Position numbers and translations under genes: made by a program
NCBI GenBank assembly: GCA_038064055.1
Contig: JBBTTW010000001.1
Coordinates: forward strand, 1-40,834
Source: Patescibacteria group bacterium
GTDB taxonomy: Bacteria; Patescibacteriota; Minisyncoccia; Phycocordibacterales; JACOZG01
Direction: 5' to 3'
Length of the DNA stretch: 40,834 nt
Shown: in pieces, positions 1 to 32,316 of the stretch
Layout: every line of letters starts with the position of its first letter
How positions within the stretch are numbered: position 1 is the first letter of the stretch
Notes under the pieces: model-generated
Told to the model about the DNA's origin: nothing
Databases searched by the model: none
Seen by the model: only the letters and a program-made list of their open reading frames with translations

Positions 1-64
1 AATTTTCAAACGAAATTATTTGATGAAAAATTTCTCCTTTAGACCCCCCCCCCGACAATTTCAA
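1..64 (-). CDS. DGR reverse transcriptase, N-terminal fragment (gene runs off the left edge)
   Basis: The minus-strand frame is open from 76 to the window edge. From TTG 64-62 (or TTG 58-56) it reads (M)KLSGGGSKGEIFHQIISFEN. This resembles the G-N-L-Y/F-E-K/Q-I-x-S-x-E-N-L N-terminal signature of DGR-type RTs as I remember it. It lies next to avd and the TR. Only about 21 codons are visible and no catalytic motifs can be seen. Confidence 0.35.
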   Translation of the reverse strand, partial: MKLSGGGSKGEIFHQIISFEN

Positions 65-83
65 TCTCTCGATTGTTCATAAG

Positions 84-443
84 TTGAGAGCATTTTATCT
101 GATTGCCTACCAACTTGGCAAAAAACTACCGAAGCAAGAAAGATTTGGTCTGTGGGCTAGGGTGGAACTGACAACGATTGAAGTTTTAACTCTTTTGATC
201 GAAGCGGGATTATCGCCAAAAATTAACAAATTACCGATTCTTGAAAAAACAAGAATCAAGATCGAAATAATTAAACAGTTAATTCGTCTCGGAAATGAAG
301 CAAAGATAATTGAAGATAAAAAGTATCTTGAATTAGAAACACGATTACAGGAAATATCTAAGATGCTCGCAGGGTGGATCAAGGACACTCAAACGCAAAA
401 GGAGCCCGTGAAAACGAACTCCTTGTGGCGCGAAACTTCCTGA
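84..443 (+). CDS. avd: Avd (DGR accessory variability determinant), four-helix-bundle / 23S-rRNA-IVS-protein family
   Basis: The translation contains LPKQERFGLWARVE...LLIEA...LIRLGNEAKII..KKY..L...LQEISKMLAGWIK. This matches the Avd pattern (LPrdhkFtLG.R...A....L....R.a......y..l...l.EiGk.lGGWik). The stop codon overlaps the TR end. The start is uncertain: TTG at 84 leaves a short first helix, the frame is open back to 27, and ATG 23 is out of frame by one C of a C10 tract. Confidence 0.8.
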   Translation: MRAFYLIAYQLGKKLPKQERFGLWARVELTTIEVLTLLIEAGLSPKINKLPILEKTRIKIEIIKQLIRLGNEAKIIEDKKYLELETRLQEISKMLAGWIKDTQTQKEPVKTNSLWRETS

Positions 444-551
444 CGGATACCACCGTTCGGGTTGGCATTGCCGTGATTCGACCAGTTGACCCTGAACTTG
501 CCGTTCGCCTCGTTCCAGTTGCCGTTAGCGACGTTACCGTCGGGATCCAGA
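436..551 (-). repeat. DGR template repeat (TR), sense on the minus strand
   Basis: This 116-bp copy is the invariant member of three direct repeats. All 30 mismatches to the other two copies lie on its minus-strand adenines (31 A in total). The pseudo-frame is rich in AAC codons (DGNVANGNWNEANGKFRVNWSNHGNANPNGG). Confidence 0.9.
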
Positions 552-760
552 ATTTGCCCGATACCATCCATGTCACCAATAATCTTTTACAAAATTATCT
601 GCGTTAACTCATCCTTGTGAGCTAAGTTTGGGAGCATCCACTGGAGTCAGGATCTCCGCTAGTACCGAGCAAGCAGTTTCAATTTCCTAATGGCAAACCA
701 TTACTCGTCCCGTTAATTAGCGGACAAATTGGTTGTATTAGCCATTGGTTTATTCTAACA

Positions 761-800
761 GATAAAAGGCGGCCCGACGCAACTTACGTTGCATCGGGCC
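761..800 (-). terminator. Hairpin downstream of VR1 / target gene 1 (intrinsic terminator and/or DGR target-recognition hairpin)
   Basis: Arms 771-783 and 788-800 (ggcccgacgcaac / gttgcatcgggcc) form 13 bp with one mismatch and a 4-nt loop. On the minus strand the hairpin is followed by GCCTTTTATC. It lies about 30 nt after the stop at 827. Confidence 0.6.
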
Positions 801-826
801 AAGTGTACAAATTCTAAGTGACAAGG

Positions 827-1603
827 TTACGCCACTGCCTGACGGAGACCACCGTGCGGGAGGGCATTGCCGTGATTCGACCAGTAGACCCTGAACCTGC
901 CGCTCGCCTCGAACCAGCGGCCGCTAGCGACGCGACCGCCGGGAGCCAGAGAGGAAGTGCGAGTCCAACTATTCTTCGGGTCGAAATGTTTCGGGATGCC
1001 GAACTTCTGGGCTTCATTGGGGTGAACTAGGTTCAACCAGAAAGCGAAGGGTTCCATAATGATCCGTTGGCGGATGGAGATGAAAGACCTCTTCTCGGCG
1101 ACGGCCTGATCATAGGAGATCGGGAGATCCTGATTGGCTTCGATCACTGGCCTCACAAGGATCACCACCGCCTGATCGATTGCCTGGAGATGGGGTTCCT
1201 TGACGCACAAGGCATTAAGATCGTCACGGTACTTCCAACAAGAGAAGAATTTGGTACCGACGGTCAGATCGTAGAGTTGGTCGGCCGTAAGATCACTCGG
1301 GGTAACAACGGGAAGGGTCAAGCCAGTCGTGGGGGTGGGGAGAGTGAGACCGGTGAGTGTGCGACCACCGACCACGCGCCAGAAGTCGACCCAGTGGTCG
1401 AAGAGATGGAGCGTGAAGTCGGAGTGGGTTGGTGTCTTGGCTCTCCGTCGTTTACTCTTGCCATCTGGCCTACCATTCTGAACTAACGGATTGACGGCTC
1501 GGTAAATTTCTTCCGGATCGAGCGACCCTTCTTTCACTCGCCTAAACCAGTCGTGTTGCTGGCGAGCGAAACGTCCGAGAACGTCATCGGCGACTTCCGT
1601 CAT
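827..1603 (-). CDS. DGR target protein 1 (258 aa, no signal peptide, C-terminal variable region)
   Basis: A long ORF whose last ~39 codons are VR1. It is a paralog of 2376..3188, sharing blocks such as LPVVTPxDLxAxQLYxLTVxTxFFxCWK and ME PF.FWLN. The C-terminus ...GRVASGRWFEASGRFRVYWSNHGNALPHGGLRQAVA follows an RV..G.W....P...G.R pattern reminiscent of FGE/C-type-lectin-fold DGR variable regions. Confidence 0.85.
   Translation of the reverse strand: MTEVADDVLGRFARQQHDWFRRVKEGSLDPEEIYRAVNPLVQNGRPDGKSKRRRAKTPTHSDFTLHLFDHWVDFWRVVGGRTLTGLTLPTPTTGLTLPVVTPSDLTADQLYDLTVGTKFFSCWKYRDDLNALCVKEPHLQAIDQAVVILVRPVIEANQDLPISYDQAVAEKRSFISIRQRIIMEPFAFWLNLVHPNEAQKFGIPKHFDPKNSWTRTSSLAPGGRVASGRWFEASGRFRVYWSNHGNALPHGGLRQAVA
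835..950 (-). repeat. DGR variable repeat VR1
   Basis: Aligns without gaps to TR 436-551. All 17 differences lie at TR minus-strand A positions. Confidence 0.9.
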
Positions 1604-1714
1604 GATTGTTCTCCCTTATCTTGTAAAAGACCTTTGTTTTTATGGTCTAGAGAACGCCCCTAAACCATTGAACCAACTGCCCTATAGCCTAGCAGATTGT
1701 GATACAAAAGTCAA
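1604..1714 (-). promoter_or_regulatory. Promoter and conserved structured 5' leader of target gene 1
   Basis: The minus strand reads TTGACT (1714-1709), a 17-nt spacer, then TAGGCT (1691-1686). The leader is homologous to that of target 2 and contains hairpin 1643-1667 (8-bp stem, 9-nt loop). Confidence 0.55.
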
Positions 1715-1757
1715 GGCCACGCAATGGTTCAATGTCTTGGAAGGACTATCGTTGAAT

Positions 1758-2015
1758 TCAGCGATAAATGTCGTGGTCACCGATGTTGATGAAAGTAACT
1801 TCATCTTTCCCAGAAAAATCAAACATGATCCGGTAAGAACCGGTGATCCAGAAGGACCAGAAATTCCGATACTCACTGTGCAGTTTATGGGTATCCAGCC
1901 GAGGATCAAAAGGATTGAGGCGAAAAAGATTTTCCCGGGCTTCGACTTTCAACTTCAGGGCCAATGGTAACTTCTTATAAACTCTCCGGAAGCGCGGGGA
2001 GTAATAAATCTGCAT
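1758..2015 (-). CDS. Type II toxin, RelE/ParE superfamily (85 aa)
   Basis: The C-terminal pattern ...HKL..EYRNFWSFWITGSYRIMFDF.....VTFINIGDHDIYR is typical of RelE/ParE/YafQ-like toxins. It lies 1 nt downstream of a small partner ORF. Confidence 0.7.
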   Translation of the reverse strand: MQIYYSPRFRRVYKKLPLALKLKVEARENLFRLNPFDPRLDTHKLHSEYRNFWSFWITGSYRIMFDFSGKDEVTFINIGDHDIYR

Positions 2016-2016
2016 C

Positions 2017-2217
2017 TTACCGTAAAGCTTTGAAGGAACGGAGAACTTTTAATTTACCCTTCTTTTTGGCTTCCATATAGCCTGCGATTGCTTGATCAGT
2101 ATCTTCCTTTTCAATTAAGCGCTTTTTTTCTAATTCTTGCCAGCGCAAAAATTGAGCATACTGACTTTTAGGTAAAGTAATGGAGTTAGTTTCTTTTATT
2201 TTAACAGCTGTTTTCAT
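2017..2217 (-). CDS. Putative antitoxin (66 aa)
   Basis: A small charged ORF immediately upstream of the toxin on the same strand with a 1-nt gap. Assignment is by position only. Confidence 0.5.
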   Translation of the reverse strand: MKTAVKIKETNSITLPKSQYAQFLRWQELEKKRLIEKEDTDQAIAGYMEAKKKGKLKVLRSFKALR

Positions 2218-2305
2218 AATATATAGTTATAACATAAAATCTAATCGAGCAAAAACTCCCCGCTTCGCCTCGGCGGGACCGATTGTATTAGCCAATATTA
2301 TTTTA

Positions 2306-2345
2306 AAATAAGGAAAGCCGCTGTGCAAACAAGTTGCACAGCGGC
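2306..2345 (-). terminator. Hairpin downstream of VR2 / target gene 2
   Basis: Arms 2317-2328 and 2334-2345 (gccgctgtgcaa / ttgcacagcggc) form a perfect 12-bp stem with a 5-nt loop. On the minus strand it is followed by TTTCCTTATTT. The flank TTGTATTAGCCA is shared with the region downstream of target 1. Confidence 0.6.
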
Positions 2346-2375
2346 GTAAGGGTACAAAACACAAATCACAAGGGT

Positions 2376-3188
2376 TCAACAAACTGCCTGACGGAGACCA
2401 CCGTGCGGGTCGGCATTGCCGTGAGCCGACCAGTTGACCCTGAACTTGCCGTGCGCCTCGTGCCAGCTGCCGTTAGCGACGCGACCGACGGGAGCCAGAG
2501 AAGCCGTGCGGGTCCAGCCTTTAGGATCGAAGTGCTGCGGGATGCCAAATTGCTTGGCCTCCCGCGGATGGTCCTTGTTCAACCAGAAGCCGAAGGGCTC
2601 CATGGTGATCCGATGTCGGATCGAGATGAAGATCTTCTTATCAGCGATGGCCTGATTGTAAGACAAACAGAGGTCAGCACTGGCTTCGACCACCGGCTTC
2701 ACGAGGATGACGGGGGCTTGGTCAACGACTTGGAGGTACGACTCCTTCACCTCAAGAACATCGAGGTTGTCCCAATTCTTCCAGCAGGGGAAGAAGTTGG
2801 TATCGACAGTGAGTTGGTAGAGCTGCTCGGCCTTCAGATCTCGCGGAGTGACGACGGGGAGAGTGAAGGCTTCCAACGTGGAAGCTTCTAACCCTGATCG
2901 CAGAGCAGGAAGAACGAGGTCAGCGTCGGTGAGTGTCCGCCCACCAACAACTTGCCAGAATTCAGCCCAGCGGTCACGGAGGCGGAGGATGATGTCGGGG
3001 GGGGAGAGCTTCTTGGTGTTTTGGATAAACGGATTTCTCCGCCCCAAAATAGCCTGTACTTGCTCACCCGTCAGCTCGCCATCCACAACCTGCCGTACTA
3101 ACTCTTTCCATTGAGGGCCGGTCACAGACGCTCCCTCGACGATCATTTTGGCTTTTTTCTTTGCCATGACCATCACCTTTCTTGTCAA
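2376..3188 (-). CDS. DGR target protein 2 (270 aa, no signal peptide, C-terminal variable region)
   Basis: A paralog of 827..1603. The last ~39 codons are VR2 (...GRVANGSWHEAHGKFRVNWSAHGNADPHGGLRQAVC). Confidence 0.85.
   Translation of the reverse strand: MTRKVMVMAKKKAKMIVEGASVTGPQWKELVRQVVDGELTGEQVQAILGRRNPFIQNTKKLSPPDIILRLRDRWAEFWQVVGGRTLTDADLVLPALRSGLEASTLEAFTLPVVTPRDLKAEQLYQLTVDTNFFPCWKNWDNLDVLEVKESYLQVVDQAPVILVKPVVEASADLCLSYNQAIADKKIFISIRHRITMEPFGFWLNKDHPREAKQFGIPQHFDPKGWTRTASLAPVGRVANGSWHEAHGKFRVNWSAHGNADPHGGLRQAVC
2384..2499 (-). repeat. DGR variable repeat VR2
   Basis: Aligns without gaps to TR 436-551. All 13 differences lie at TR minus-strand A positions. Confidence 0.9.
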
Positions 3189-3275
3189 ACACCTTGATTT
3201 CTATGGCCCAGAGAACGCCTCCAAGCCATTGAACTAACTGGCCAATAACTTAGCAGATTGAGGGAGAAAAGTCAA
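3189..3275 (-). promoter_or_regulatory. Promoter and conserved structured 5' leader of target gene 2
   Basis: The minus strand reads TTGACT (3275-3270), a 17-nt spacer, then TAAGTT (3252-3247). Hairpin 3204-3228 is homologous to 1643-1667 and shows compensatory changes. Confidence 0.55.
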
Positions 3276-3304
3276 GCCCCGCTAGAGGGTCGCTCTGGCG
3301 GGGC
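3265..3304 (-). terminator. Intrinsic terminator of the 3332..4228 gene
   Basis: Arms 3276-3287 and 3293-3304 form a GC-rich stem of about 12 bp. On the minus strand it is followed by TTGACTTTTCTC. Confidence 0.55.
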
Positions 3305-7198: not shown

Positions 7199-7504
7199 AT
7201 GGGTCGCGTTGGGGCGCCGGTTCGGATGCCGATGAGCATGGAGGAATTTCGAAGAATCTTAGGTGGCTTACTCACTAAGGGTTGGGTGGCGGGGATCGAA
7301 GATGGTCGCATCCGCCTTTGGCCAAACAAGGAGAAGCTTGGTTATAGTTACGACCCGGTGGCAGCAGTCTTGCTCATGTCGGGAGGGAGACGCTTGGGTT
7401 TGACCGATAAAGTAGCCCTGCGGGTTAAGCTCGCGGCGGCCAGACCAGATAAACACAAACGCACGCGGATTGGGCTCCTGCGCACCCTCGGTTTGCTCCA
7501 CTAA
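7199..7504 (+). CDS. Hypothetical protein (101 aa)
   Basis: A strong RBS (AAAGGAGGA) lies 5 nt upstream of the ATG, and a terminator follows the ORF. No family was recognised. Confidence 0.55.
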   Translation: MGRVGAPVRMPMSMEEFRRILGGLLTKGWVAGIEDGRIRLWPNKEKLGYSYDPVAAVLLMSGGRRLGLTDKVALRVKLAAARPDKHKRTRIGLLRTLGLLH

Positions 7505-19030: not shown

Positions 19031-19789
19031 ATGATTTCAAGCCTATTTAAGTCTGTATTTATCGAACCACTCTATAATTCACTGGTTTTTCTAAGCGCGG
19101 TGCTTCCTTGGGAAAGTTTGGGTGGAGCGATTATCATCCTCACTTTAGTGGTTAAATTCATTCTCCTTCCATTCCAGCACAAAATCATTAAAACCCAAAA
19201 GCAATTAAAGTTAATCGAGCCAAAACTCCAAGAAATAAAGAAAAACACCAAAGATGATCGAAGTGAGCAGGCTAAACAGATAATGCTCCTTTATAAAACC
19301 CACGGCATCAACCCCCTCACCTCTTTCTGGACCCTATTGATTCAAATCCCGATCATTCTGGCTTTGTTTTTTGTCTTTAAGAGCAGTGCCACTCTTCATC
19401 CGGAATTGATCTACTCCTTTACCCCAAGTCCTAATGAAATGTCCTTAATCTGGCTTGGGTTGATTGATCTAAGTAAAACATATTTCCCCCTAGCCTTACT
19501 GGTAGGGGTGACGCAGTTTATCCAACTTTGGTTGGCTAATCCTAAAATCAGTCTTCCGGACAGTAATTCCTCTAGTAATAATCAAATTATCGCCCAGAAA
19601 ATGCAAACCCAAATGCGCTATATCCTACCGATCTTCATCATTTTCGCCGCTTCCAGCTTACCTTCAGCGATCGGCCTCTACTGGATAACAAGTAACCTCT
19701 TCGCCATTACTCACGAGTGGTGGGTGCGACGGGAGTCAGATCGTCTTTTAGCTCCACCTGACGGAGTTGCCCCGTCTCCCGCTCGATAA
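19031..19789 (+). CDS. yidC: Membrane protein insertase YidC/Oxa1 (short form)
   Basis: It has a multi-pass topology and the blocks KLQEI....KDD...Q..MLLYK.HGINP and GLYWITSNLF. The last 83 nt overlap the convergent gene 19707..21005. Confidence 0.85.
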   Translation: MISSLFKSVFIEPLYNSLVFLSAVLPWESLGGAIIILTLVVKFILLPFQHKIIKTQKQLKLIEPKLQEIKKNTKDDRSEQAKQIMLLYKTHGINPLTSFWTLLIQIPIILALFFVFKSSATLHPELIYSFTPSPNEMSLIWLGLIDLSKTYFPLALLVGVTQFIQLWLANPKISLPDSNSSSNNQIIAQKMQTQMRYILPIFIIFAASSLPSAIGLYWITSNLFAITHEWWVRRESDRLLAPPDGVAPSPAR

Positions 19790-21005
19790 AGATCACTTTT
19801 CGCTCATCCTTGGTGACCAATAATTGAGTCGCATCACCCAAACCGGCTGTTTCCGCCCAAACTAACTGGCTCGTACCAGTGTCGGCATTAATTTTCCAGA
19901 CTAAATCATTAAATTTCATTCCTCCTAAGAGTCGATTAACCAAAGAGAAACCCACTCCAACACTTTGCGGCGCAGCGCAGTAGACGAAGGTCGAATTATT
20001 GTTCCAGGCGCACTTATTAGCCAGAGTTTTCACCGTTAAAAGCCTGGTTTCCTTCGTGCTTCGGATGTAGAGGCTAAGTTCAAGGCCCAAATTGCCGATT
20101 TTAGAGTAAAGAATCTTTTGCCCGCTCGGACTAATGAGGGTGACTAAACCGTTAATTCCACTCAAAATCGGATCGGCGCTATTATTTTTTAAATTAACCA
20201 AGTATAAGTAGCCGGGTAAATTGTCGGCGGGGCGACTAGTGAGGCCAAGGAGACTCTTTTCCGGCCAAGCGACCAGCCATTGATTTAATTTCGAATTAAA
20301 AACCAAAGAAGTTTTACCGGTTTTAATGGTTGTGACTTTACCAATCGTGTCTTCCCCGACCGTCTCCAAGGTGAAGAATTGATCTCGGGCTGGAGACAAC
20401 ACAAGCTCACGTATCTGAGGGCTAAGACTCTCGATTGGTGGTTCAGGTAAATTTAACTCAGTGGTGCTTGTAGCGAGAGTAACGGTGGCTTGGAAGTAAT
20501 TCTTACTTTCCCCGGCTAGAGTAGAGAACCAAGCTGTTAATTTGCCACTATTTAGAACCAGCGACCCGGCCTCAATCGCGCCGCGGACGGGTAAGCGCGC
20601 GAGCGAGCGCTTCTCGCCGCTCCTTAGATCCACTTCCACTACGAGCCCCGTTTCGCGCTCGAGGAAGATGAGTTTATCGCTCGCGCTTGAGGTGGCGGCG
20701 CTAATAATCATCGCGCCGCTCGCGGCGCGGCTGTTTAAAATACTCAAACCCGAAGGTTGGTCGGGTGTGGGTGCGACTGAATCATTAGTTTGCGAAGGGT
20801 TAGGGTTTGGTTGATTGGGGTCGGGAAGTGGTGTGGGGTCAATGATTGGATCAGAGATGGGGAAATTCTGGCCCAAACTATCGTCAAGCACCGGCGCCGC
20901 TGGAACGTTGGGGCCACCCCGATTAAACTGGAGGTACCACCAGACGCCGCCACCGACGCCGGCGAGGATGAGGATGATAATTAAAACGATTAGAAATTGC
21001 CTCAT
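19707..21005 (-). CDS. Membrane-anchored protein with Pro-rich linker and beta-rich (propeller-like) domain; last gene of the T4SS-like operon
   Basis: An N-terminal TM segment (FLIVLIIILILAGVGGGVWWYL) is followed by a PxP-rich linker. The body repeats short beta-strand motifs (e.g. LIFLERETG..VEVDL / VIFIERETGQLRQVEL). It starts 6 nt after the pilin-like gene. Confidence 0.75.
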   Translation of the reverse strand: MRQFLIVLIIILILAGVGGGVWWYLQFNRGGPNVPAAPVLDDSLGQNFPISDPIIDPTPLPDPNQPNPNPSQTNDSVAPTPDQPSGLSILNSRAASGAMIISAATSSASDKLIFLERETGLVVEVDLRSGEKRSLARLPVRGAIEAGSLVLNSGKLTAWFSTLAGESKNYFQATVTLATSTTELNLPEPPIESLSPQIRELVLSPARDQFFTLETVGEDTIGKVTTIKTGKTSLVFNSKLNQWLVAWPEKSLLGLTSRPADNLPGYLYLVNLKNNSADPILSGINGLVTLISPSGQKILYSKIGNLGLELSLYIRSTKETRLLTVKTLANKCAWNNNSTFVYCAAPQSVGVGFSLVNRLLGGMKFNDLVWKINADTGTSQLVWAETAGLGDATQLLVTKDERKVIFIERETGQLRQVELKDDLTPVAPTTRE

Positions 21006-21011
21006 ATTATT

Positions 21012-21431
21012 TTAACGTGACGCCTCTTGCCCCACTTGCTGGGGCGGTTTAAGGTCGAAGTTAAGTTTAACCAACTCGGGGTTGATGCTTCTGAGTATAA
21101 GGTAAGCGGCGAGAGCCAATACGAGACCCCAAATCGCTTCCGTGATCTGCTTCTTCCCCTCCTCTTTAACCCCGGGGATGGAACTTAAGATATATTTAAA
21201 GCCACCGATGGCGATCATTAGAGCGGCGAGCGTAGCGGCTAAGCCAATAGCGATTGGGAAGACGAAACCCAAATATTCGGTTAAACCAGAAAATTGACCT
21301 TGACTCGTTAGAGTCACGGGGTTTTGAAGAGGTTCGAGTAAAACAACTCCGGGCGCATTTTCAGCCAACGCGACACCGCTCGAGGTTAAAATCATACCCA
21401 GAACCAAGATGATTAATCCAAACTTCTTCAT
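21012..21431 (-). CDS. VirB2/TrbC-like T4SS pilin candidate
   Basis: A signal peptide (…SSGVALA|EN) is followed by two hydrophobic helices separated by a short charged loop (GVKEEGKKQ). At 139 aa, its size and topology fit VirB2-type pilins. Confidence 0.55.
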   Translation of the reverse strand: MKKFGLIILVLGMILTSSGVALAENAPGVVLLEPLQNPVTLTSQGQFSGLTEYLGFVFPIAIGLAATLAALMIAIGGFKYILSSIPGVKEEGKKQITEAIWGLVLALAAYLILRSINPELVKLNFDLKPPQQVGQEASR

Positions 21432-21432
21432 T

Positions 21433-22164
21433 TTAAAATTGGAAGGTGTTTAAACCGAAACCGATCGGCAATTTACCGGTAGCCGATTGGAGTGGATAAT
21501 TCTTATTCAGCACCGCGAGATCAAGCGCCGTCTCCCCCACTTGATCGGCGGTAGCGACGACCGTCAGCCGGCGGGGATCCTCCGTGGCCGGCACAATCTT
21601 CTGCCCCTTAATCGACCATTCGAAAGACAAACGACGATTGAGCCAGTCCTCGATAGAGAAAAAGAGGGGTTCGGCAATGATCTTCGTCTCATCACTTACG
21701 ATTTGGAGTCGCGCCAGGCTCTTCGTGTGATCGATCACCCCATCTTTGATGGCATAGAAGCGGAGTTCGGGCCGAGCAACACTCACTCGCGCCTCCCCCG
21801 CGGCGACACTTACGCCATCTCGCCGCGCCACATTAACTTCAATTAAATTAACTTCGCCGGCGCGACTAGCGGCGCGGTAGTCGAAAGTGTCGCGCCCAGC
21901 GCCGGAGGCGCTCCTTATCTCCACCCCATCCTTCCGCCAATTGAAATCTAGATCTTGGACCTTAAGCTTCACCCCACTTGAGTTATAGATCGTCGGGACA
22001 GCGACCACGCGGACGAGGCTACTCGGGGTGGGTAGGGTCCGACCCTCATACCATACCGGCGCATAAGTCTTCGCCTCCCAAATAAGCGCTACCTCGGACG
22101 TTTGAGCTAGCACCGGAGTCGTGGCAAGCAAAAAGAAACTAAAGATGAAAAGAAATCTTAACAT
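21433..22164 (-). CDS. Secreted hypothetical protein (243 aa)
   Basis: It has a signal peptide (FLFIFSFFLLATTPVLAQT) and is beta-rich. It is tightly packed within the operon. Confidence 0.7.
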   Translation of the reverse strand: MLRFLFIFSFFLLATTPVLAQTSEVALIWEAKTYAPVWYEGRTLPTPSSLVRVVAVPTIYNSSGVKLKVQDLDFNWRKDGVEIRSASGAGRDTFDYRAASRAGEVNLIEVNVARRDGVSVAAGEARVSVARPELRFYAIKDGVIDHTKSLARLQIVSDETKIIAEPLFFSIEDWLNRRLSFEWSIKGQKIVPATEDPRRLTVVATADQVGETALDLAVLNKNYPLQSATGKLPIGFGLNTFQF

Positions 22165-22197
22165 TTAGCACCCTAATTATAACTTATTTGGGCAAAC

Positions 22198-22623
22198 TTA
22201 CTCAATCGAACCTCTTAAATAGCGACCCTTCTCCAATCTCTTGATCAATTTCTCAGCATCAACCCGTCCATGGGTTTTATTGTAAAGAGTGTCTTCAGCT
22301 TTAAGCCATGATATTTGTAACACTACACGCAATGTCCATATGGGAAGAGCATTGAAAATAGGTAATTCTTCCATAGGAGGAAGCACCCACATAATAAACG
22401 CTTGTTTTACTGTGTCAGACAGGCCCCAGCCCTTAATTGATGTCCAAAGATAGAAGGTTAACCAGACAAAAATACTAAAGAAAAATGACGCGATCCAGCC
22501 AACATAAACAATAGAAACAAGAAAAACTTGAACTAGGTCAAAAATAACCGCCGCCGATACCATTAGAAAAGCCGAGCTAAACTCCACCCGATTCCTCTTC
22601 TCAAATTCTTGGGGTTTAGGCAT
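22198..22623 (-). CDS. Small polytopic membrane protein (141 aa)
   Basis: It has three or four hydrophobic segments. Its GC content is clearly lower than that of the flanking operon genes. Confidence 0.6.
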   Translation of the reverse strand: MPKPQEFEKRNRVEFSSAFLMVSAAVIFDLVQVFLVSIVYVGWIASFFFSIFVWLTFYLWTSIKGWGLSDTVKQAFIMWVLPPMEELPIFNALPIWTLRVVLQISWLKAEDTLYNKTHGRVDAEKLIKRLEKGRYLRGSIE

Positions 22624-22642
22624 CGAATTGGTTTAAGAATAA

Positions 22643-24460
22643 TTAGGCCGCCCCCACTCCTGCCGCGAGATCGTTCTTCGCCTTCTTGATCGATAGTAAT
22701 TGGGAGGGGTCGGAGGTAATGATCTGATCTTCGGTGTAAGAGGAGATGATCTTAATGGCAATGTGCTTCAAACCGGCGAAGAAGATCCCCTCCCCAACGC
22801 CGGACTCAAGTAAGAGGTACTTCTCCTCATCGGTCAGTTGGAAGGTCTTCTGCACTAGGTCAATTGAGGCGGGCGACTGCTTCAAGAGGAGTTGGATTGA
22901 GGAGTTGGTGATGATCGGCAGGCCATAAGGTGAGAGGAGGAAGTCCCCGACGTCTTGAGTGATCGTCGCCACTCCCAAGTAGTACTTGCGACCCCGCTTC
23001 ACGAGGGAGAAGAGGAAGGAGGCGGTGTCTTTCGACTTCATCATCCACCAAGCCTCATCGACCACGAGGAGGCGCTTCTTTAGGTTGCGGCGGATGGCGT
23101 TCCAGATGTTGTGCATCACGATGTACATCGCCACCGGCTTCAACTCATCTTCCATATCGCGAACAGAGAAGACGACGAACTTCTTATTAATATCGACATT
23201 AGTCGGCTTGTTAATGAAGCCGGCCCAAGTGCCTTGAGTGTACTTGGCGAGCCTCTGCGCCAACGTCTCCCCGCCCTCCATGCCGGCGAGGACGAATTCG
23301 AGATCGGAAAGGAGCGGCGCTGGTTTGCCGCTAAAGTCGGAGTCGGGGGTAATGTCTTTCAGGGCATACGTTTCCGTAATCGCGCTATCAAGCACGGCAT
23401 CTTCTTCGGGAGTAAGGCCGCCAAGCATGAGTCGGAAGAGACCGACTAAGTTAATGATGTTCGACCGGAGCACATCAGCCGGTGACTCATCTTCGCGTGG
23501 GAAGGGTAGGTCAAAGGGATTGATGTGGTGCTCGGAAGTGAGGGAGATGTTGAAGTAGCGACCCCCGACGGCTTCGGCGAGGAATTCGTACTCGCGCTCG
23601 GGGTCAACGACGATGACGTCGGCGTCGAACATCAAGCTCCGCAAGATCTCAAGCTTGGTGGCGTAAGACTTACCGGCGCCCGACTTGGCGAAGATAACGG
23701 AGTTGTAGTTCTCAAGGGAGAAGCGATCGAAGAGGACGAGGCTCGAGTTATGACGATTAACGCCGTAGAGGATTCCTTTATTGGAAGTGAGGTCGAAGGA
23801 GACGAAGGGGAAGAGAGAGGAAAGGGGGGCCGAATTTAGTTTGTAATTAACTTGGAGTAAGTTCTCGGCAATCGGCAGAGTGCTCTTGAAACCCTCTTCT
23901 TGCTGGAAGAGGGCGGGCTTAAGGTAGACAAGCTTGGCATCGAGCAACCCCTTCACTTCCGATTCAATCTCGTTCAACTCATCTTCGGTGTCGCCGTAGA
24001 TGGTGAGGTATAGGCCAACGTCGAAGATCTTCTCCCGTGCTTGCTGGAGGGCGTCGCGGAGACTCTCAATGTCTTGGTAGGCCACATCGAGGACGGGGTC
24101 GCGCACTAACCCCTTCTCCTCCTTCATGCTGATCTGGCTTTGGACTTCAGCCACCTTCTTCTCCAGTTGGCGCAAAGCGACGGCGGTGTCGATCGGGTGG
24201 ATCAAGATGGAGACGTCAAAAATTTTGTCTAAATTAATTATCGGCGAGAACCAATCACCGGCAAGGAAGCGCGGGTAGGAGATGACGAAGAGAGTTCGCG
24301 CCACCTTCTCCCCCAAGTGGATGAGGCGCGGGGTGATCTTGAGCGCCGAAGGCGCGATGATGTCCTTCAGCTCAAGCACCCCCATCTTATAGATGTCGGC
24401 CGGTAAGATCGGGGCGATCGTGTTTTGGGTTGTCTTTGGTTTTTTACTAAATAATCCCAT
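22643..24460 (-). CDS. virB4: VirB4-family T4SS ATPase (central plus ATPase domains)
   Basis: It has Walker A FAKSGAGKSYATK and Walker B LLVVDEAWWMM. The block VARTLFVISYPRFLAGDWFSPII...DVSILIHPID matches the Gram-positive VirB4 (Tn916 Orf16 / PrgJ-type) mid-domain as I remember it. Confidence 0.85.
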   Translation of the reverse strand: MGLFSKKPKTTQNTIAPILPADIYKMGVLELKDIIAPSALKITPRLIHLGEKVARTLFVISYPRFLAGDWFSPIINLDKIFDVSILIHPIDTAVALRQLEKKVAEVQSQISMKEEKGLVRDPVLDVAYQDIESLRDALQQAREKIFDVGLYLTIYGDTEDELNEIESEVKGLLDAKLVYLKPALFQQEEGFKSTLPIAENLLQVNYKLNSAPLSSLFPFVSFDLTSNKGILYGVNRHNSSLVLFDRFSLENYNSVIFAKSGAGKSYATKLEILRSLMFDADVIVVDPEREYEFLAEAVGGRYFNISLTSEHHINPFDLPFPREDESPADVLRSNIINLVGLFRLMLGGLTPEEDAVLDSAITETYALKDITPDSDFSGKPAPLLSDLEFVLAGMEGGETLAQRLAKYTQGTWAGFINKPTNVDINKKFVVFSVRDMEDELKPVAMYIVMHNIWNAIRRNLKKRLLVVDEAWWMMKSKDTASFLFSLVKRGRKYYLGVATITQDVGDFLLSPYGLPIITNSSIQLLLKQSPASIDLVQKTFQLTDEEKYLLLESGVGEGIFFAGLKHIAIKIISSYTEDQIITSDPSQLLSIKKAKNDLAAGVGAA

Positions 24461-24461
24461 A

Positions 24462-25112
24462 TTAATTCCTTAACTGAGGCGCATCGATCTCACCCGGGTT
24501 GAAGATCTTAAAGAAGAGCTCAACCAGCTCTTCGGTGCCAAGTTGAACGACGCGGATGCCGAGGCGCGACAGGCCTTGCGCCACCACACTGGCTCGTTGC
24601 TCGAGTTGGGAGCGGTACTCTTCAAACTTCGCCACCGACGTGACTTTGTCTTGGCTGCCCTTCTTCCCAAAGAGGCGCGAGAGGAGACCCCCGCGCTTCT
24701 CCAGCACCGGCGGCTCGTAAGGGATGACGGCGAAGAAGGTCTTAGCCATAATGTTGGTACTCTCGGTAAAAGCGCGGATGAACTCAATGTATTCTCGAGT
24801 TTGGATCTTAATCAAATCATTTAATTGATTCTTCTCAAGCCCCTCGAGGATGGTGAGGTAGGGGCGAATGTCGAGCTTGCGGGATTGGACGAAGATTTGG
24901 AGATGAAACTCAAGCGAGTTTAAGAAATTCTGGTATTGCAAGAGTAGCGCCGTCTGCTCCTCCTCCGACTTCAGCGCGAAGTTGAGGGACGAGGCAATCA
25001 AGACGAGGCGGAGTCCCCCATCCTTCATCACCACCACGCCGTCGCGGATCTCTTCCACCGGCACGAAGTCTTGGGTGGCGCGAGCTTTATTGTCTTGGGT
25101 CGAAGTCGCCAT
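24462..25112 (-). CDS. VirB4 N-terminal domain encoded as a separate ORF
   Basis: The block QDFVPVEEIRDGVVVMKDGGLRLVLIASSLNFALKSEEEQTALLLQYQNFLNSLEFHLQI matches the first ~200 aa of Gram-positive VirB4 proteins. Its stop codon is 1 nt from the start of the ATPase ORF, in a different frame. Confidence 0.65.
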   Translation of the reverse strand: MATSTQDNKARATQDFVPVEEIRDGVVVMKDGGLRLVLIASSLNFALKSEEEQTALLLQYQNFLNSLEFHLQIFVQSRKLDIRPYLTILEGLEKNQLNDLIKIQTREYIEFIRAFTESTNIMAKTFFAVIPYEPPVLEKRGGLLSRLFGKKGSQDKVTSVAKFEEYRSQLEQRASVVAQGLSRLGIRVVQLGTEELVELFFKIFNPGEIDAPQLRN

Positions 25113-25116
25113 AACT

Positions 25117-25518
25117 TTAACGTAAATTTTCTTTAATATCTAAACTCCAAGCCAGGTCGCGGAGCTTACTCCCCGATAATTTGGGAATCGGCACCGCCGC
25201 TTGCTCCCCGAGCTTGATCTCGGTCGCGACGGCGGTCTTCGGCCGCCGCTTCCAGAGGTAGAGCTTGGCGGTGAGCACGTAGTGGAAGGCCGACTCAAGC
25301 ACATTCACAAACGGGCGGGAGTTAACTTTGTAGAAAGCGAGGGCGAAAGTGAGCGCCGCGAGAGGGATAATAATCCACACACTCAAGAAAAACGGGAGGA
25401 AGTTGTAGACCATGAAGACGGCCCCCGCCCCGCCGGCCAAGTAGACGAATTGTTTGAAGGTCAGTGGCCCGAAAATTTTGTCCTCGACCTCAATGAACTG
25501 GGGAACTTGGAAGTTCAT
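25117..25518 (-). CDS. PrgI/VirB3-like small membrane protein
   Basis: The N-terminus MNFQVPQFIEVEDKIFGPLTFKQFVYL is followed by two TM helices, which is the PrgI-family pattern. It lies immediately upstream of the VirB4 ORFs. Confidence 0.65.
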   Translation of the reverse strand: MNFQVPQFIEVEDKIFGPLTFKQFVYLAGGAGAVFMVYNFLPFFLSVWIIIPLAALTFALAFYKVNSRPFVNVLESAFHYVLTAKLYLWKRRPKTAVATEIKLGEQAAVPIPKLSGSKLRDLAWSLDIKENLR

Positions 25519-25539
25519 TGTCTCTATTTTACCACAGTT

Positions 25540-25992
25540 CTATTCTGGTTTCTCTAGATATGGATCCAAATCAATTTCTTCGCGGGGGATGCGGAAGAGT
25601 TGGCCGAGCTTCTTCTCAAACACCGTGTTTTGGTCGGCGGGCTTACTCGCCTCACTTCGGACTTCGCCCGAGGCCTTCGCCTCCTCCATCTGACGCATCG
25701 AATCTCGAATCGGGAGGAAGATCTCTTGATTAACCTCCCCCACGATCTTATTAATCACTTCGCCGGAAACACCCAATTCGATTAAATTCTTGGCCAAGTC
25801 ACTAACTGGCTCAAGGCCGATGATGCTAAGAGCGACGTGGTCAGCCAAGATGCCCATTTGGTCAACTTGGAGATGGTTGCCAATACCAATGTCGCCAATC
25901 GCGCCCTCGATGTCGAGATCCCAAATTGCCAACTGGAGATCCTCGGGGAGCTTAGAGAAGGCGGCTAATAATTCTTCGCTAGTGTGTTCCAT
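25540..25992 (-). CDS. Acidic cytoplasmic hypothetical protein (150 aa)
   Basis: It lies in the operon and has no TM segment or signal peptide. No family was recognised. Confidence 0.6.
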   Translation of the reverse strand: MEHTSEELLAAFSKLPEDLQLAIWDLDIEGAIGDIGIGNHLQVDQMGILADHVALSIIGLEPVSDLAKNLIELGVSGEVINKIVGEVNQEIFLPIRDSMRQMEEAKASGEVRSEASKPADQNTVFEKKLGQLFRIPREEIDLDPYLEKPE

Positions 25993-26002
25993 AGATTATA
26001 TT

Positions 26003-28330
26003 TTACTTATCATCCCTTGGTTTGTCTTTATCTTCCGGCTTTTCTGGCACCTGCTTGTTCTTAATCAATGCCGTTTCCTCTCTTAAGAGAGCTTGGTATT
26101 CAGCTTTGTTTTGATAATCGGGATCTAATTTCATTGTCTCAATCTTTTCCCTCACAAATTTAAGCCGTTCTTCTTGGCGCTTGGCGTTATCCTTCTTCTC
26201 TAGGGCTGCATCGAGTTTCTTCCGCTCGGCTTCAGGGAGACCTTGTTCTAGTTTAGTTAGGACTTGGCCGGCTCGTGTTACTCGATCTCTTGTTCCTTCC
26301 AGCCGCTTCGCCTTAGGCGACTTCTTTCGTAATTCAAGCTTCCCTTGTCGCTCCCTCATATATTTGTCGTAAGCTTCGACGGCTGGCTTATTCGCCCTTC
26401 GTTGTTCCTCAGTGGCACCGTTGTACCAATCAAGGGTTGATCGGTTGTTTAGATCGAGTTCCTCAATTTCTTTCGTGATCTGTTCCCTTGTCTTCATGTC
26501 CCCTGTTCCCTTAGCGCGATACTCGGCTAACTTCACCCGATCTTCGGGCTTCAGCTTCTCATAAGCTTTCTGTTGGGCTAGACCACCAGCGAGAGAGATC
26601 GAGGTCCCCGGCAAACCCACTCTCATCCCCTTCATATATTGAGCTAGGAGAGCCGGATCCTTCTTAATGTAGTCTGGAATCTTCGTCTTATCATCCAAGA
26701 CCTTGGCGAAGCCCTTCTTCGAGCCGAAGCCGGCCTTGGATCCATAATCGGCAATATTCTTTAACGCCCCACCCATGCGCGGGTTCCGCGCGGCGAGACC
26801 CTTCATTAGATTGGATTCCGAAGCTTTGTAAGCCAGTCGGCCAATAGTATTGCGCCCCACTGTGCCGCCAATGAAGCCACCAGCGAAGCCAAGGGCCCCG
26901 GCTCGCCATTTATCAATGTAAGATTGTGCTCCAGCCGCTCCTTTCGCTCCAAGCGACTTGGCGACAATAATCGAAGCCAGCATAAAGCCAGCCGCGATCA
27001 TAAAGTGGAACATAATTTGGAGTGATGAAGGATTGTTCCCCGTGAGGATCGCGGCCAGAGCATCGCTCTTCAGCACCACAATCGTGAGGTAGATCATTAT
27101 AAGGTAGAGCGGCGCGAAGAAGGCTTGATCAAGTAAGGTATGGAACCACTTATCAAATTGCCCTTTCTGGTTTGGCAGAGCGTAAGCAAGGAAGGCAAGC
27201 GGCGAGAGGATGATCGCGAGTACGAGCGACACTACTCGGTGGGCAAAGAGAACGGTAGCAGCAATGAAGACGAAGATGGTGATCACCATCATCACAATTG
27301 TGCCGAAAGCCACGACGGACGAGTTCACAAACTCCCAACCCACTCCCGCGGCGGGAATGAAGCCAGCTGTCCCCGCCTTACCGATCCAAGTGGTAAGAGG
27401 CAGGGCGTTCATAAACACTGCCGATAAGCCTCTTACGGAACCGGAGCCGAAGGCGACGGCGTAAGTTTCTTTATCTAAACTAACCGCTTTGTAGAATTGG
27501 TAAGCTACCACATTCGAAGCGTCGATGATGATTCGGGTGAAGAAGGCCGAGAAGTTAATTAAGAGCGCAATCACGATCACCGACACAAGGATTTGCCGGC
27601 CGTTGATTGAAGAGACTTGTAAGATCATGCCAATGGCGGCGTAGAGGAGGATGAAGATGAAGAAGAGATTAGAGACGTCGCGCAAGACTTGCCAGGCGCC
27701 ATTAACCGCCGGTGAATTGGCTAAACTACCGAAATTAACTACGGAGTATTGGACGGCGTAATCGAAGAGCCCACCCACTCCCCAGAGCACCAAACCAAGA
27801 ATTTGTTTTAAGAATTCGCCCACATAACTGATCCCCGAACGGAGGAAACACGAGAAGCTGGAAAAGAAACCACAACTTTCTGGTTTAGGCGGACTCACTC
27901 TATTACTAATGCTTTGTCTTGGATCAACTTGCGAATCTGGGTTCGAGGTTGGATTGTATAACTCAGAAAGTTCTCGGAGTTGCGCTTGGGTAGATTCTAG
28001 TTGCAATAGAACTGATTCATTGTTTGGGGACAACACCAGCATTTGTTGCAAGATAGAAGCTCTTTCTCGGAGCTCGTTTCCTTTATCCGTGACGTAATTT
28101 CTAAGCTCCTGTTCGTTTAAATTATTTAAATTACTCGCACCGTAAAATTCATCAGTCACGGCTAGCGCTTCATCTATTTCTGCCAATTGAGTCATAAGAG
28201 TTCCTAGGGGGTCATTTGTTTGAGCTAGGGCAAAATTACTCTGGGTTGTAAAACCCATGACAAAAAACATTACCATCGAGCAGACGACAAATTTTTTTAG
28301 AAAGCTAGTTTTCATTATCAAATATTCCAA
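26003..28330 (-). CDS. VirB6/TrbL-like polytopic channel protein with charged C-terminal tail
   Basis: A signal or anchor segment and a coiled coil precede about 300 aa containing at least 6 TM helices. A long Lys/Glu-rich tail follows. The real start is possibly MKTSFLKK at 28315. Confidence 0.7.
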   Translation of the reverse strand: MEYLIMKTSFLKKFVVCSMVMFFVMGFTTQSNFALAQTNDPLGTLMTQLAEIDEALAVTDEFYGASNLNNLNEQELRNYVTDKGNELRERASILQQMLVLSPNNESVLLQLESTQAQLRELSELYNPTSNPDSQVDPRQSISNRVSPPKPESCGFFSSFSCFLRSGISYVGEFLKQILGLVLWGVGGLFDYAVQYSVVNFGSLANSPAVNGAWQVLRDVSNLFFIFILLYAAIGMILQVSSINGRQILVSVIVIALLINFSAFFTRIIIDASNVVAYQFYKAVSLDKETYAVAFGSGSVRGLSAVFMNALPLTTWIGKAGTAGFIPAAGVGWEFVNSSVVAFGTIVMMVITIFVFIAATVLFAHRVVSLVLAIILSPLAFLAYALPNQKGQFDKWFHTLLDQAFFAPLYLIMIYLTIVVLKSDALAAILTGNNPSSLQIMFHFMIAAGFMLASIIVAKSLGAKGAAGAQSYIDKWRAGALGFAGGFIGGTVGRNTIGRLAYKASESNLMKGLAARNPRMGGALKNIADYGSKAGFGSKKGFAKVLDDKTKIPDYIKKDPALLAQYMKGMRVGLPGTSISLAGGLAQQKAYEKLKPEDRVKLAEYRAKGTGDMKTREQITKEIEELDLNNRSTLDWYNGATEEQRRANKPAVEAYDKYMRERQGKLELRKKSPKAKRLEGTRDRVTRAGQVLTKLEQGLPEAERKKLDAALEKKDNAKRQEERLKFVREKIETMKLDPDYQNKAEYQALLREETALIKNKQVPEKPEDKDKPRDDK

Positions 28331-31300
28331 CCACTATCTTGGCACGGACCCGGACCCGGGCACGGATCTTGGCTGTTGAAGATGCTCCCCCGCGCCGTGT
28401 CGGCGTAGGCGTCGAGGCCGGCACTAAACTCGGCTTCAATGTTTGGCAGTTCGCGCTTCACTGCGTCCTCGCTCGACTCATCAGCTCCTTCCAGTTGGCG
28501 CGTGATCGAGGTCATGAGTGAGGTGAAGTAGTCGCGTACCGTTGGCGCGGGGACGGTCGTCTTCCACTTAGCACAATCACCATTCTCTAACTGATCTTCG
28601 GCGGCACACTCACGCGGCCCGAGTACACCCTGACCCCAAGCGAGCTCCTCGCGGGCGTTTTGGTCGGCCTCGGCCGCGCGCCGCGCCAGCTCCTCGCGCG
28701 TTAAGTTCTCCACGCCGGCCGGATTATTCTGCGGCTGGATCAGTTTAAGCCAATTACCCCAAGGGTCGGCGGCGTCGGAGAATTTGCCCACGGTCGTGAT
28801 CTCATCGAACTCTTCTTTGGTTAGCGTTGGCTTGAGCCGCTCAGCGAAGGTCTCGTCCGGTTCTTGGGACAGTTTATTATAAATTTCTTGCACCAGAGGG
28901 TAATTAGCCTCATCTTCGGCCAGACCCTTCAACTGCTCAATCAGGATGCGCTTCTGCTCATTTTGAACTTCGGCTAAATGGGTGGCGGTGTTTTGGACGT
29001 AGAGCGGCTTCTTCTCCCCCGTTGCTCCGGGCACATTAAGAGCAGCAGCGCTGACTTCGTAACCATGATTGAAGAAGTCGGTGATCCAGCGATCCTTATG
29101 TTCGCTAATCGCTTTGGCCGACGCTTTTCGCGCCGCCGGATTCCAGATAAACATTCGATCTTCCGCGAGGATCTGAACTCGCCTAATCACTTTAGAGTTG
29201 GTGCAGGCTTGGATCTGGAGGTTAAGTAATTTCTCCGTTAGGTCAGAAATTTTCTTCTCCTCGCTCAAAATTTTTCCCGAAGTGCGACTAATTCCCTGCT
29301 CCACCGAGAGAATCCCTTTGCTTGACCAGAGCACCCCCACATCCATCACCGGGAAGCCACCAGCCGCCGGGGCCATGCCAATAGTCGACATTGTTTCAGC
29401 CAAAACCTGCTCGGCCACTTGAGCGAGGATTGGACCGACGTACGGCACCCCCTCAAGGACGGAGGTCACACCAGCGGTGAAGGTCCCAACGAGACCACCC
29501 TTTAGGCCCTGCGCAATGTTTGAGGTGAGACCACTTTGTACTCCCACACTACCGACGGCTTGCTCGGTGACCTGACCCACCGAAGCTTGGGTGGTTTCGG
29601 CGGCGGTACTAGAAATATCACCCAGAGCGCCGGTTAATGGAGCATGAGGCGGTAAGGCTGCTTGGTAGTCACTCCAACGCATTTCCCCTGGTCGGAGGGT
29701 GGCAATACTGTCGGGGACAATCCTAATTCCCTCTTGTTGCATCAAATCGAATTGTCCTTGGGGAACTTGACCCGGCCCAATAGGGCCATTGAAGTCATCA
29801 GGCACAACGCTAATCTCCGGTCGAGGGAAAATGGCATCTTGAATGCCGTAGCCAACACTATTGATTCCATCCGCCACCCAACTCCCCGCTTCGAAGGCGC
29901 CCATAGTAATGCCTTGAGCTAGAGGGTAGAGGGCTTGGCCTAGGGTGTTATCGATACTCATGGCAATCGTGTCGCCGATATGGTCAATAATAATCACCGC
30001 TGGCTTGGTGAGCTGGGCTACCGTCATACTGATTTGGAGATCGACGGCATCGATGATCGGATCGAGGAAGACCTCATCCATACTATCGATCGCATCTTCG
30101 AGCGCGCGGGTGGGGCCGACGATCGAGTCCATGACTTGATCGATCGAACTTTCGAGTTGGCGGTTGATTGGTCCGGAGATGGCGCCAGTGATCGCGTCCG
30201 CGAGCCTGGCAATGTTCTTCGGTTCAGTTAATGATTGCTCAAGTTGAAGCGAGAGTTTGGTAATCATCTGCTCGACGAAAGCATCCTGATTGTCAGTGTC
30301 TAAAAATTCGGTGAGCCAGGTTAGAAACTTAGTTATCCCATCAAGTTGCTCCACCATGTTTTTAAGTAAGGTGATCGCCTGGTTGATTTCAGGAAATAAG
30401 GAGTCAGCCAGTCCTTGCACTAATCCGAATGGTTCTTCTGGGTCGACGCGAACTGTTAATCCAGCAGTCAGAGCCCTTGTCCCAATACACAGAGGATCAC
30501 CTAGGCATTCAGCAGCTTGGGTTTTTAAATACTCTAGTCCGGCCATCGTTCCTCTAATTGTGTCTTCAATATGCTTCACCTCTTTCTCGATCATCCCGGG
30601 CACTTGAGCGAGGACCGTCTCGATTTGCGCGCGGTAGTAAGTCTCAACCGTTGGCCGCGCCACACGGCCGAAGTTGAGACGGAGATTATTTTGGAGTGAG
30701 TTTCGCAGGCCGCGATCAACCGAGTTCGAGACGGCGTTACCAACAAAGTCTTCATTCAAGACTCGGGGCAAGCTCTCGCGGATCGAATCGCGGACGAGAC
30801 TGGTGAAGAGTCCGCGATTGGCACGGATGTCGGCATCAGTTAAGCCGGTAGCGCGAGCGGCCTCGAGCTTCTCGGCTAAAGTGAGCGGTAACTCCTCCTT
30901 CAACCTTTGCTCGAATCCGGCCTTGAATTCGGTTTGGAGATCTTGCTCAATCGCCAAGGCAGCGCTCTCGTTGATCGTTTGATTTAAAGCGGTGGGGATG
31001 GCGTTGATACCCAGTTGCTCATTAATGGATTCTTTCAGGGGTTTAGTCACGGCTCCGGCTACAGCTTGTCCGACGGTCGGATTCTTTTTCTTACTCCCTT
31101 TAGCCTCAAGCTCGCAGGCCTCACGATCTTGCTCGCGCCACTCTTCGAGATTGGCCTTTGGATCTTGGCTTGCCAGTCGAGCGGCGGTGACGGGCGGCCG
31201 GAGGAAGTTCTCGGGATCAATCTCGCCCACCGGCACCGGAGGTGCCGGTGGGCCGACGAGGAGACTCGAGGCGGCCGGCTCTTCCACCACCACTGGATCT

Positions 31301-32165: not shown

Positions 32166-32316
32166 TATTATACCTTAATTTTTTATTGCTCCGATAAGAT
32201 TTTTAGGCGTCAAAGTGGATAAAATTGGTCGGATTGACGGCGCGCCCAGATTTGCTAGTTTGAAAGTTGGTTTCGGAATGGGAAATTGGTCTTTTACCAC
32301 GGAAAGGTGGGGCGAA

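Follow-up and report, generated by a model that had tools for sequence, protein, structure and literature searches.

A chromosomal diversity-generating retroelement of the Patescibacteria type with two tandem targets and a covarying RNA domain directly 5' of its template repeat

The window, that is, the whole stretch of 40,834 nucleotides (nt) from a Patescibacteria group bacterium analyzed here, carries at its left end a compact array of genes and repeats that an earlier note had read as a diversity-generating retroelement (DGR). Followed along the minus strand, this array comprises a gene ending in a variable repeat (target 2 with VR2), a putative toxin-antitoxin pair, a second gene ending in a variable repeat (target 1 with VR1), an RNA gene containing the template repeat (TR), the accessory gene avd on the opposite strand and a reverse transcriptase (RT) gene that is cut by the left edge (Table 1). 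Outside this array, the window consists of unremarkable chromosomal DNA of the candidate phyla radiation (CPR), with polA, tsaE, a pilus ATPase, ruvABC-type genes, a penicillin-binding protein, dnaN, dnaA and a cluster resembling type IV secretion systems (T4SS).

The three 116-nt copies of the repeat align without gaps, and our base-by-base recomputation agrees exactly with the earlier counts: compared to TR, VR1 shows 17 differences and VR2 shows 13. All 30 fall on a plus-strand T, i.e. a minus-strand A, of TR, which has 31 such positions per 116, and there are no differences among the three copies at the remaining 85. The hypergeometric probability of all the differences falling on T is 2.6e-12 for one diverged copy and 3.7e-9 for the other. 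That the diverged copies also differ from each other at many adenine sites had been noted as well; we count 13 such sites. A pattern derived from TR by placing N at every adenine occurs at exactly three sites in the 40.8-kb window and at none in 100 shuffles.

These differences have a direct bearing on the encoded proteins. As previously described, the diverged copies supply the last ~39 codons of two paralogous minus-strand genes, and the translations quoted for them and for the AAC-rich pseudo-frame of TR are correct: read in the frame of the target genes, TR yields LDPDGNVANGNWNEANGKFRVNWSNHGNANPNGGIRQE with eight AAC codons. Thirty of its 31 adenines occupy codon positions 1 or 2, and the changed codons (13 in one VR, 11 in the other) are non-synonymous without exception. 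Outside the repeat, the two target genes share 74.3% nucleotide identity over 490 nt. Given that the non-adenine positions are 100% identical while the flanks stand at 74%, the transfer from TR to the VRs was recent and came after the divergence of the two genes. At the three 3'-most differences (window 438, 448 and 457), VR1 and VR2 carry the identical A-to-C change; these shared differences from TR lie within the last 22 nt of the VRs and may be fixed differences between the initiation-of-mutagenic-homing elements IMH and IMH* rather than independent mutagenesis. A search for VR alleles in the JGI metagenome contigs with the TR-derived pattern returned no matches, and a conserved 22-mer from upstream of TR gave two matches in metagenome contigs, both by chance, in unrelated Tara contigs.

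The protein components of the system are likewise recognizable. The open reading frame (ORF) next to TR had been proposed to be of the Avd type, and it indeed matches the Pfam model bAvd (PF22296) above the cutoff (E 7.1e-13, 49.4 bits, cutoff 40) and the NCBIfam model DivGenRetAVD (NF033474) at E 2.9e-15 (56.4 bits, below the cutoff of 80). Avd accessory proteins are found in most DGRs, not all. The claim that this gene abuts TR holds in that the two adjoin with an overlap of 8 nt, and needs correction as to strand: avd converges on TR and runs antisense to the targets and the RT as well as to TR. Its reading frame is conserved further upstream, to ~54. At the left edge, the minus-strand frame (-1) reads LKLSGGGSKGEIFHQIISFEN (..GGGSKGEIFHQIISFEN); this RT-like N-terminus aligns to the N-terminus of a 343-aa RVT_1 protein in a sister contig. 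The window is part of contig CAYICM010000004.1 (L001) from a Patescibacteria metagenome-assembled genome (MAG), which ends 44 nt to the left of the window. The sister contig L002, independently assembled from groundwater, is 99.46% identical over 2,220 nt, encodes an identical target 1 and continues into the uninterrupted RT (RVT_1 match at E 1e-24). The earlier note had staked its reading on an RT gene with the expected motifs lying within a few kb to the left; the intact RT of L002 lies there, with LGNVTSQ (residue 204), YCDD (residue 236) and no QGxxxSP. [I/V/L]GxxxSQ is the signature of DGR RTs, while other RTs show QGxxxSP (PMC7826257). A search at E < 1e-20 recovers over 7,300 relatives of the L002 RT; among the 120 listed, the source names are Patescibacteria, Paceibacterota, plain 'bacterium' or a generic RT/retron label.

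Public gene calls for the two contigs annotate the TR pseudo-frame (window 389-571, minus strand) as a 60-aa gene (L001 11033-11215, L002 1649-1831). This call is an artefact of the kind that annotations of DGR loci typically show, and avd is absent from the public calls because the TR pseudo-ORF was called in its place; an exact-sequence look-up of the Avd ORF gave no match.

The adenine-only pattern of TR and VRs, Avd and the RT in L002 together uphold the interpretation as a DGR, and we place at about 0.93 the probability that the locus is a chromosomal DGR of the type typical for Patescibacteria, which rewrites the tips of two paralogous proteins. Several points weigh against this. The full RT lies in neither the window nor its contig and is supplied by the sister contig. 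Ten of the 11 mismatches to L002 fall in window 8-74 and, together with the one indel, cluster in the last ~120 nt of the contig, and the contig tail encodes AGREF where relatives keep a conserved AWREF (the Trp being lost); the contig end is thus either noisy or degenerate, and is probably noisy, through assembly noise or a strain mix. The start codon of avd is ambiguous (TTG at 84 or further upstream). VR1 has the same sequence in both assemblies in which it occurs, giving no direct sign of ongoing diversification, and the primer-like duplex described below is mostly invariant, with double changes in only two of nine pairs, so that its covariation support is modest. The cluster of mismatches at the contig end covers window 1-74 plus the next 44 nt (L001 11604-11647).

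Three alternatives have to be weighed against a functional DGR. First, the locus might be a fossil or silenced DGR that retains the signature of past activity while its RT or Avd is now unexpressed or damaged. The contig end within the RT, the AGREF in place of the conserved Trp motif and the invariance of VR1 between two assemblies would all fit, as would the situation in related genomes: a G10 tract leaves the RT of L003 and L018, and avd too in L003, with no in-frame canonical start, and L014 and L006 hold homologous target genes with no adjacent DGR core. Nevertheless, we consider a fossil unlikely, as L002 has an uninterrupted RT with all catalytic motifs together with an Avd ORF, the complete homogenization of the 85 non-A positions against 26% divergence of the flanks indicates recent homing, and TR retains its eight AAC codons and an open frame. 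The DGR is presumably active today. Second, an RT of another class (group II intron, retron or defence RT) could merely lie near the repeats. The best NCBIfam match of the RT is indeed to a group II intron RT/maturase, with weaker matches to Drt and retron models, but all are far below their curated cutoffs (148 bits vs 300, 87 vs 200 and 57 vs 235); moreover, the RT carries LGNVTSQ rather than QGxxxSP, the Rfam scan of the window finds neither a group II intron nor a retron RNA, and Avd and the A-mutagenised TR/VR set adjoin the RT, making such a coincidence extremely improbable. Third, the three paralogous gene ends might have exchanged sequence by ordinary gene conversion or recombination, without reverse transcription. 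Tandem paralogous targets with duplicated promoters and terminators might lend themselves to this, but the explanation is effectively refuted, as gene conversion cannot restrict 30 of 30 differences to a single base of one copy, the invariant copy is intergenic, between the Avd gene and a conserved RNA domain, and the same signature stands beside RT genes in six other loci (differences at TR adenines: L003 14/14, L018 16/18, L020 19/19, L022 17/18, L024 24/24 and L025 27/28).

Table 1. Coordinates of the features of the DGR locus, in window numbering unless a related locus is named.
Feature	Position	Strand	Remarks
Template repeat (TR)	436..551	-	adenine-rich, 8 AAC codons, invariant, intergenic
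VR1	835..950	-	last ~39 codons of target 1; 17 differences, all at TR adenines
VR2	2384..2499	-	last ~39 codons of target 2; 13 differences, all at TR adenines
avd accessory gene (four-helix-bundle Avd)	84..443	+	PF22296, NF033474; start may lie upstream of TTG at 84
RT, first ~21 codons	1..64	-	in-frame TTG at 64-62 and 58-56; ORF leaves the window at the left edge
Structured 5' domain of TR RNA	545..696	-	RNAalifold with pair counts, covariance model
GAAACUGC of the domain	680-673	-
P1, 5' strand	672-661	-
P2	657-631	-
P3	621-608	-
P4	603-574	-
P1, 3' strand	565-554	-	ends 2-3 nt before TR
Conserved GAAGUUUC at TR 3' end	432..439	-	AGUUUC complementary to GAAACU at 680-675
Stem-loop just 3' of TR, U-rich tail	399..424	-	overlaps avd 3' end (other strand); folding z -3.2
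C10 on plus strand (G10 on RT strand)	44..53	.	where the 5' ends of divergent avd and RT meet
Homopolymer, L003	~7361-7370
Homopolymer, L018	2847-2856
Homopolymer, L020	2531-2542
Homopolymer, L022	2461-2471
Homopolymer, L024	2523-2532
Homopolymer, L025	2503-2511
Homopolymer, L026	3006-3014
Target gene 1, 258 aa	827..1603	-	family of uncharacterised CPR DGR target proteins
Target gene 2, 263 aa (ATG 3167) or 270 aa (TTG 3188)	2376..3167	-	target 1 paralogue (P0004), 74% nt identity outside VR
Upstream region of target 1, promoter-like TTGACT	1612..1718	-	repeat family D2; 79%-identical copy upstream of target 2
Upstream region of target 2, second duplicated promoter copy	3173..3279	-	repeat family D2
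GC-rich hairpin with T-rich tail	770..801	-	~35 nt downstream of VR1; z -4.5
GC-rich hairpin with T-rich tail	2317..2345	-	~40 nt downstream of VR2; z -4.9

The same layout recurs in seven more independent loci (L003, L018, L020, L022, L024, L025 and L026), and blocks upstream of TR are nearly identical in two genomes whose target proteins share only 53% identity. In an alignment of seven independent loci, with L026 kept out of the training of the covariance model, RNAalifold predicted that the stretch directly 5' of TR folds into a domain of four helices; it comprises 38 pairs, and compensatory double changes affect 23 of these. The alignment cells are paired in 91.6% of cases vs 38-52% in controls with slid partners, and the covariation score is 0.59 vs 0.08-0.16; none of 500 shuffles attains the value observed. 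All positions of the 12-bp closing helix P1 are paired (100%), and 10 of the 12 pairs show double changes. Covariation thus establishes these helices. The covariance model finds one match per DGR locus and none elsewhere in 151 kb, and it recovers the domain directly upstream of TR in the untrained L026 (72.8 bits, E 1.4e-16). No Rfam 15 family, RT-10 included, matches the window at the gathering score, and at E <= 10 the region 350-830 gave four chance-level matches to unrelated families and no RT-associated motif. The sequence GATAAT (599-594) was considered as a -10 box of a TR promoter and rejected, as it forms the 5' arm of the covarying hairpin P4.

Two further elements bracket this arrangement. 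The domain starts with an almost invariant GAAACUGC, whose GAAACU is complementary to the AGUUUC in the conserved GAAGUUUC at the 3' end of TR. This complementarity is present in 8/8 loci, with a compensatory change from A-U to G-C in L020, and the flanking pair occurs as five pair types. Just 3' of TR, a hairpin is found in all seven loci examined, with unrelated stem sequences and z values of -2.5 to -6.7; in the window it is a candidate for an Avd-binding stem-loop and/or a terminator. In the Bordetella ribonucleoprotein, the order of elements is the stop-duplex partner, TR, primer-binding site, Avd-binding stem-loop, primer (Sp53-56), followed by G57, C58, the stop-duplex strand and further hairpins (bioRxiv 10.1101/2023.10.23.563531). 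Here, the order is GAAACU-G-C, a P1 strand, the hairpins P2, P3 and P4, the P1 partner, TR, AGUUUC and the stem-loop. Compared to the Bordetella RNA all neighbour relations are kept, whereas the spacer part lies 5' of TR here and 3' of TR there; from this we infer a permuted DGR RNA. As the homology between TR and VRs starts 2-3 nt after P1, this helix would define the 5' end of the cDNA, and the GAAACU:AGUUUC duplex would define the start of its synthesis.

Accepting these roles, diversification might proceed as follows. A discrete RNA of ~300 nt would be transcribed from ~696 down to ~395, and the RT-Avd complex would reverse-transcribe its TR segment, misincorporating opposite adenines. On the model of the Bordetella Sp53-56:TR118-121 pairing, synthesis would start at the 3' end of TR, where AGUUUC would be duplexed with the GAAACU of the 5' domain as the primer strand, and, comparable to the Bordetella stop duplex, it would halt at helix P1, which abuts the 5' end of TR. 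The adenine-mutagenised cDNA would then replace the homologous segment, the final ~39 codons, in either target, with up to ~15 surface codons being re-randomised and no stop codons created. The 5' RNA domain and its primer-like complement would thereby offer a testable account of how a DGR functions with an antisense avd between TR and RT. To our knowledge, the mechanism of CPR-type DGRs has never been studied biochemically. A bolder proposal, which we put forward tentatively and at somewhat less than even odds, is that across the whole clade with this layout (B3, see below) the TR RNA is circularly permuted, with primer, stop-duplex and protein-binding hairpins gathered in a ~130-nt 5' domain, and, separately, that slippage at a G9-G12 tract gates expression of the enzymes.

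This tract marks the meeting point of the avd and RT 5' ends. A run of G9-G12 on the RT strand occupies the same position in 9/9 loci examined, the window and eight others (window G10, L002 GGAG9, L003 G10, L018/L019 G10, L020 G12, L022 G11, L024 G10, L025 G9 and L026 G9). Among the closest 120 RT homologues, 76 have GGG 17-40 residues (mostly 20-25) before the AWREF anchor, and a further 21 have GG, often as RGG or RRGG, which is the tract in another frame. As the peptide reading varies with the frame, it is the nucleotide run that is conserved rather than the peptide. Both the tract length and the reading frame through the tract differ between related genomes. The RT is in frame with a canonical start in 7/9 loci, the exceptions being the two noted above, L003 and L018, each with G10; the start candidates of the window RT are in-frame TTG codons. 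For avd, L003 has no canonical start in frame, and in L018 an in-frame TTG directly follows the tract and was chosen by the gene caller. In L020 and L024, avd and RT are each in frame with an ATG beyond the tract, so that their N-termini overlap head to head. A scheme in which a single tract length switches avd and RT together fits the window, L003, L018, L020 and L024, but was rejected since it fails in L026, where the two genes would require different tract lengths. The tract possibly acts via phase variation, transcriptional slippage or near-cognate starts. It resembles the homopolymeric contingency loci of Campylobacter, Neisseria and Bordetella in being a 9-12-nt G/C run at the extreme 5' coding end, whose length varies between related genomes and through which the frame is not conserved. 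Unlike them, the CPR tract sits in the head-to-head junction of two genes and is known here from comparison between genomes. Our literature search found no paper linking DGRs with such tracts; their conservation suggests a simple on/off or dosage control of the hypermutation machine. A second homopolymer (2997-3004; G8 on the plus strand, C8 on the coding strand) occurs within target 2 in a proline-rich linker, LSPPDI, and the relative P0003 shows a long poly-proline at the site of this C8 run.

The targets define a family of their own. Their tandem arrangement includes the duplication of the upstream regions and of the terminator hairpins. The GC-rich hairpins 35-40 nt after both VRs recall those of known DGR target sites and also resemble plain terminators; the one at 770-801 is probably the terminator of target 1 and possibly doubles as a DGR target-site hairpin. 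An exhaustive profile search recovered 222 family representatives at 50% identity, mostly of 230-270 aa and all with a variable C-terminus. The same family is found in four of the five related DGR loci with a translated target, although in some genomes its gene is absent beside the RT, with orphan copies in L006 and L014; we regard it as the main substrate of this RT clade. Neither target has a signal peptide or a hydrophobic segment (maximum KD19 1.1-1.3). None of 75 family members tested matches Pfam, and no sequence relative was found in the PDB. AlphaFold run on the 75-sequence alignment yields a model with pLDDT 92.4 (47 in a run with five sequences). A Foldseek search with this model returned nothing at E <= 0.001 in PDB or BFVD, with canonical C-type lectin (CLec) domains appearing only at E ~6 and TM ~0.3; Foldseek can miss very divergent CLec variants. 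Like the variable proteins with the CLec fold, namely Mtd, TvpA, AvpA and TaqVP, the targets have a C-terminal VR with variable codons over the last ~35 residues, and a conserved Trp followed ~24 residues later by a conserved Arg near the C-terminus; unlike them, the family has no Pfam, PDB or significant Foldseek match. Roux et al. expect a very divergent CLec fold for such scaffolds (PMC8144416). Judging from the model, the VR scaffold would have either a very divergent CLec fold or a different one, and may not be recognisable as a C-type lectin fold. This confident prediction, which has no counterpart among solved folds, is relevant to whether C-type lectin folds underlie every DGR scaffold.

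The first ~45 residues of target 1 (window ~1470-1603, minus strand), VADDVLGRFARQQHDWFRRVKEGSLDPEE, form a module common to other CPR proteins; it occurs at 60-80% identity in at least 15 small CPR proteins (175-228 aa) with unrelated C-terminal parts, and target 2 has a diverged version of it. The pair between the targets is a putative RelE/YafQ-like toxin with a small antitoxin (1758-2015 and 2017-2217, minus strand), both matches being weak and below curated cutoffs. The position of the DGR core relative to polA varies among related genomes (L014 4001-4970, L003 5821-10709, L018 1-4706), and in L003 the RT ORF runs into polA with no stop codon. A PD-(D/E)XK (Cas4-like) nuclease that follows the RT in L002 was considered as a DGR accessory and discarded, as the same gene is in place in L014, where it comes directly after a target gene and TR, avd and RT are absent. 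Farther away, the T4SS-like cluster (window ~19700-32200, minus strand) encodes a T4SS pilin, a TraG/VirB4-type ATPase and a PrgI-like protein; it is flanked by large proteins (775 and 1022 aa) that match no Pfam family and adjoins yidC, dnaA and dnaN.

In terms of known systems, the layout of the locus, with TR at 551-436 on the minus strand, avd at 84-443 on the plus strand and the RT running leftwards from ~64 on the minus strand in a Patescibacteria MAG, is that of architecture B3, i.e. TR-(avd)-RT with avd reversed, which according to Wu et al. 2018 (PMC5758913) makes up 90% of the DGRs in CPR. It likewise corresponds to DGR clade 2 of Roux et al. 2021 (PMC8144416), a CPR-restricted group in which the targets typically lack recognisable domains. 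The agreement extends to the CPR host, the chromosomal location, the order target-TR-avd(reverse)-RT, the small domainless targets with a C-terminal VR and, among the matches listed, the closest RT relatives, which are from CPR. There is no essential difference; the present locus has two tandem paralogous targets with a toxin-antitoxin pair between them. It thus belongs, as an ordinary case, to a class that is well known and very large, and as such it adds one more example to the thousands of CPR DGRs and leaves the field unchanged. Its interest lies in the presumably permuted TR RNA, the homopolymer between avd and RT and the still unassigned fold of the targets.

A second comparison is with the mechanistic prototype, the DGR of the Bordetella phage BPP-1 (mtd-avd-TR-brt). 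Both systems show adenine-specific transfer from TR to VR, an Avd, an RT with [I/V/L]GxxxSQ and a target whose 3' end holds the VR. In both, a GC-rich hairpin follows the VR, a stem-loop lies immediately 3' of TR, a duplex sits beside the 5' end of TR and a short primer-type duplex at its 3' end. However, the targets here are cellular proteins with no significant match to solved structures, those with the CLec fold included. The Rfam motif RT-10, which represents the spacer between TR and RT in BPP-1 (PMC5737381), does not match here. Unlike in BPP-1, an antisense avd occupies the interval between TR and RT, with no TR-strand spacer RNA there, and a conserved structured RNA with a permuted order of elements is found 5' of TR. 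If the proposed permutation is true, the template would be a self-contained small RNA, which would leave the interval between TR and RT free for the antisense avd.

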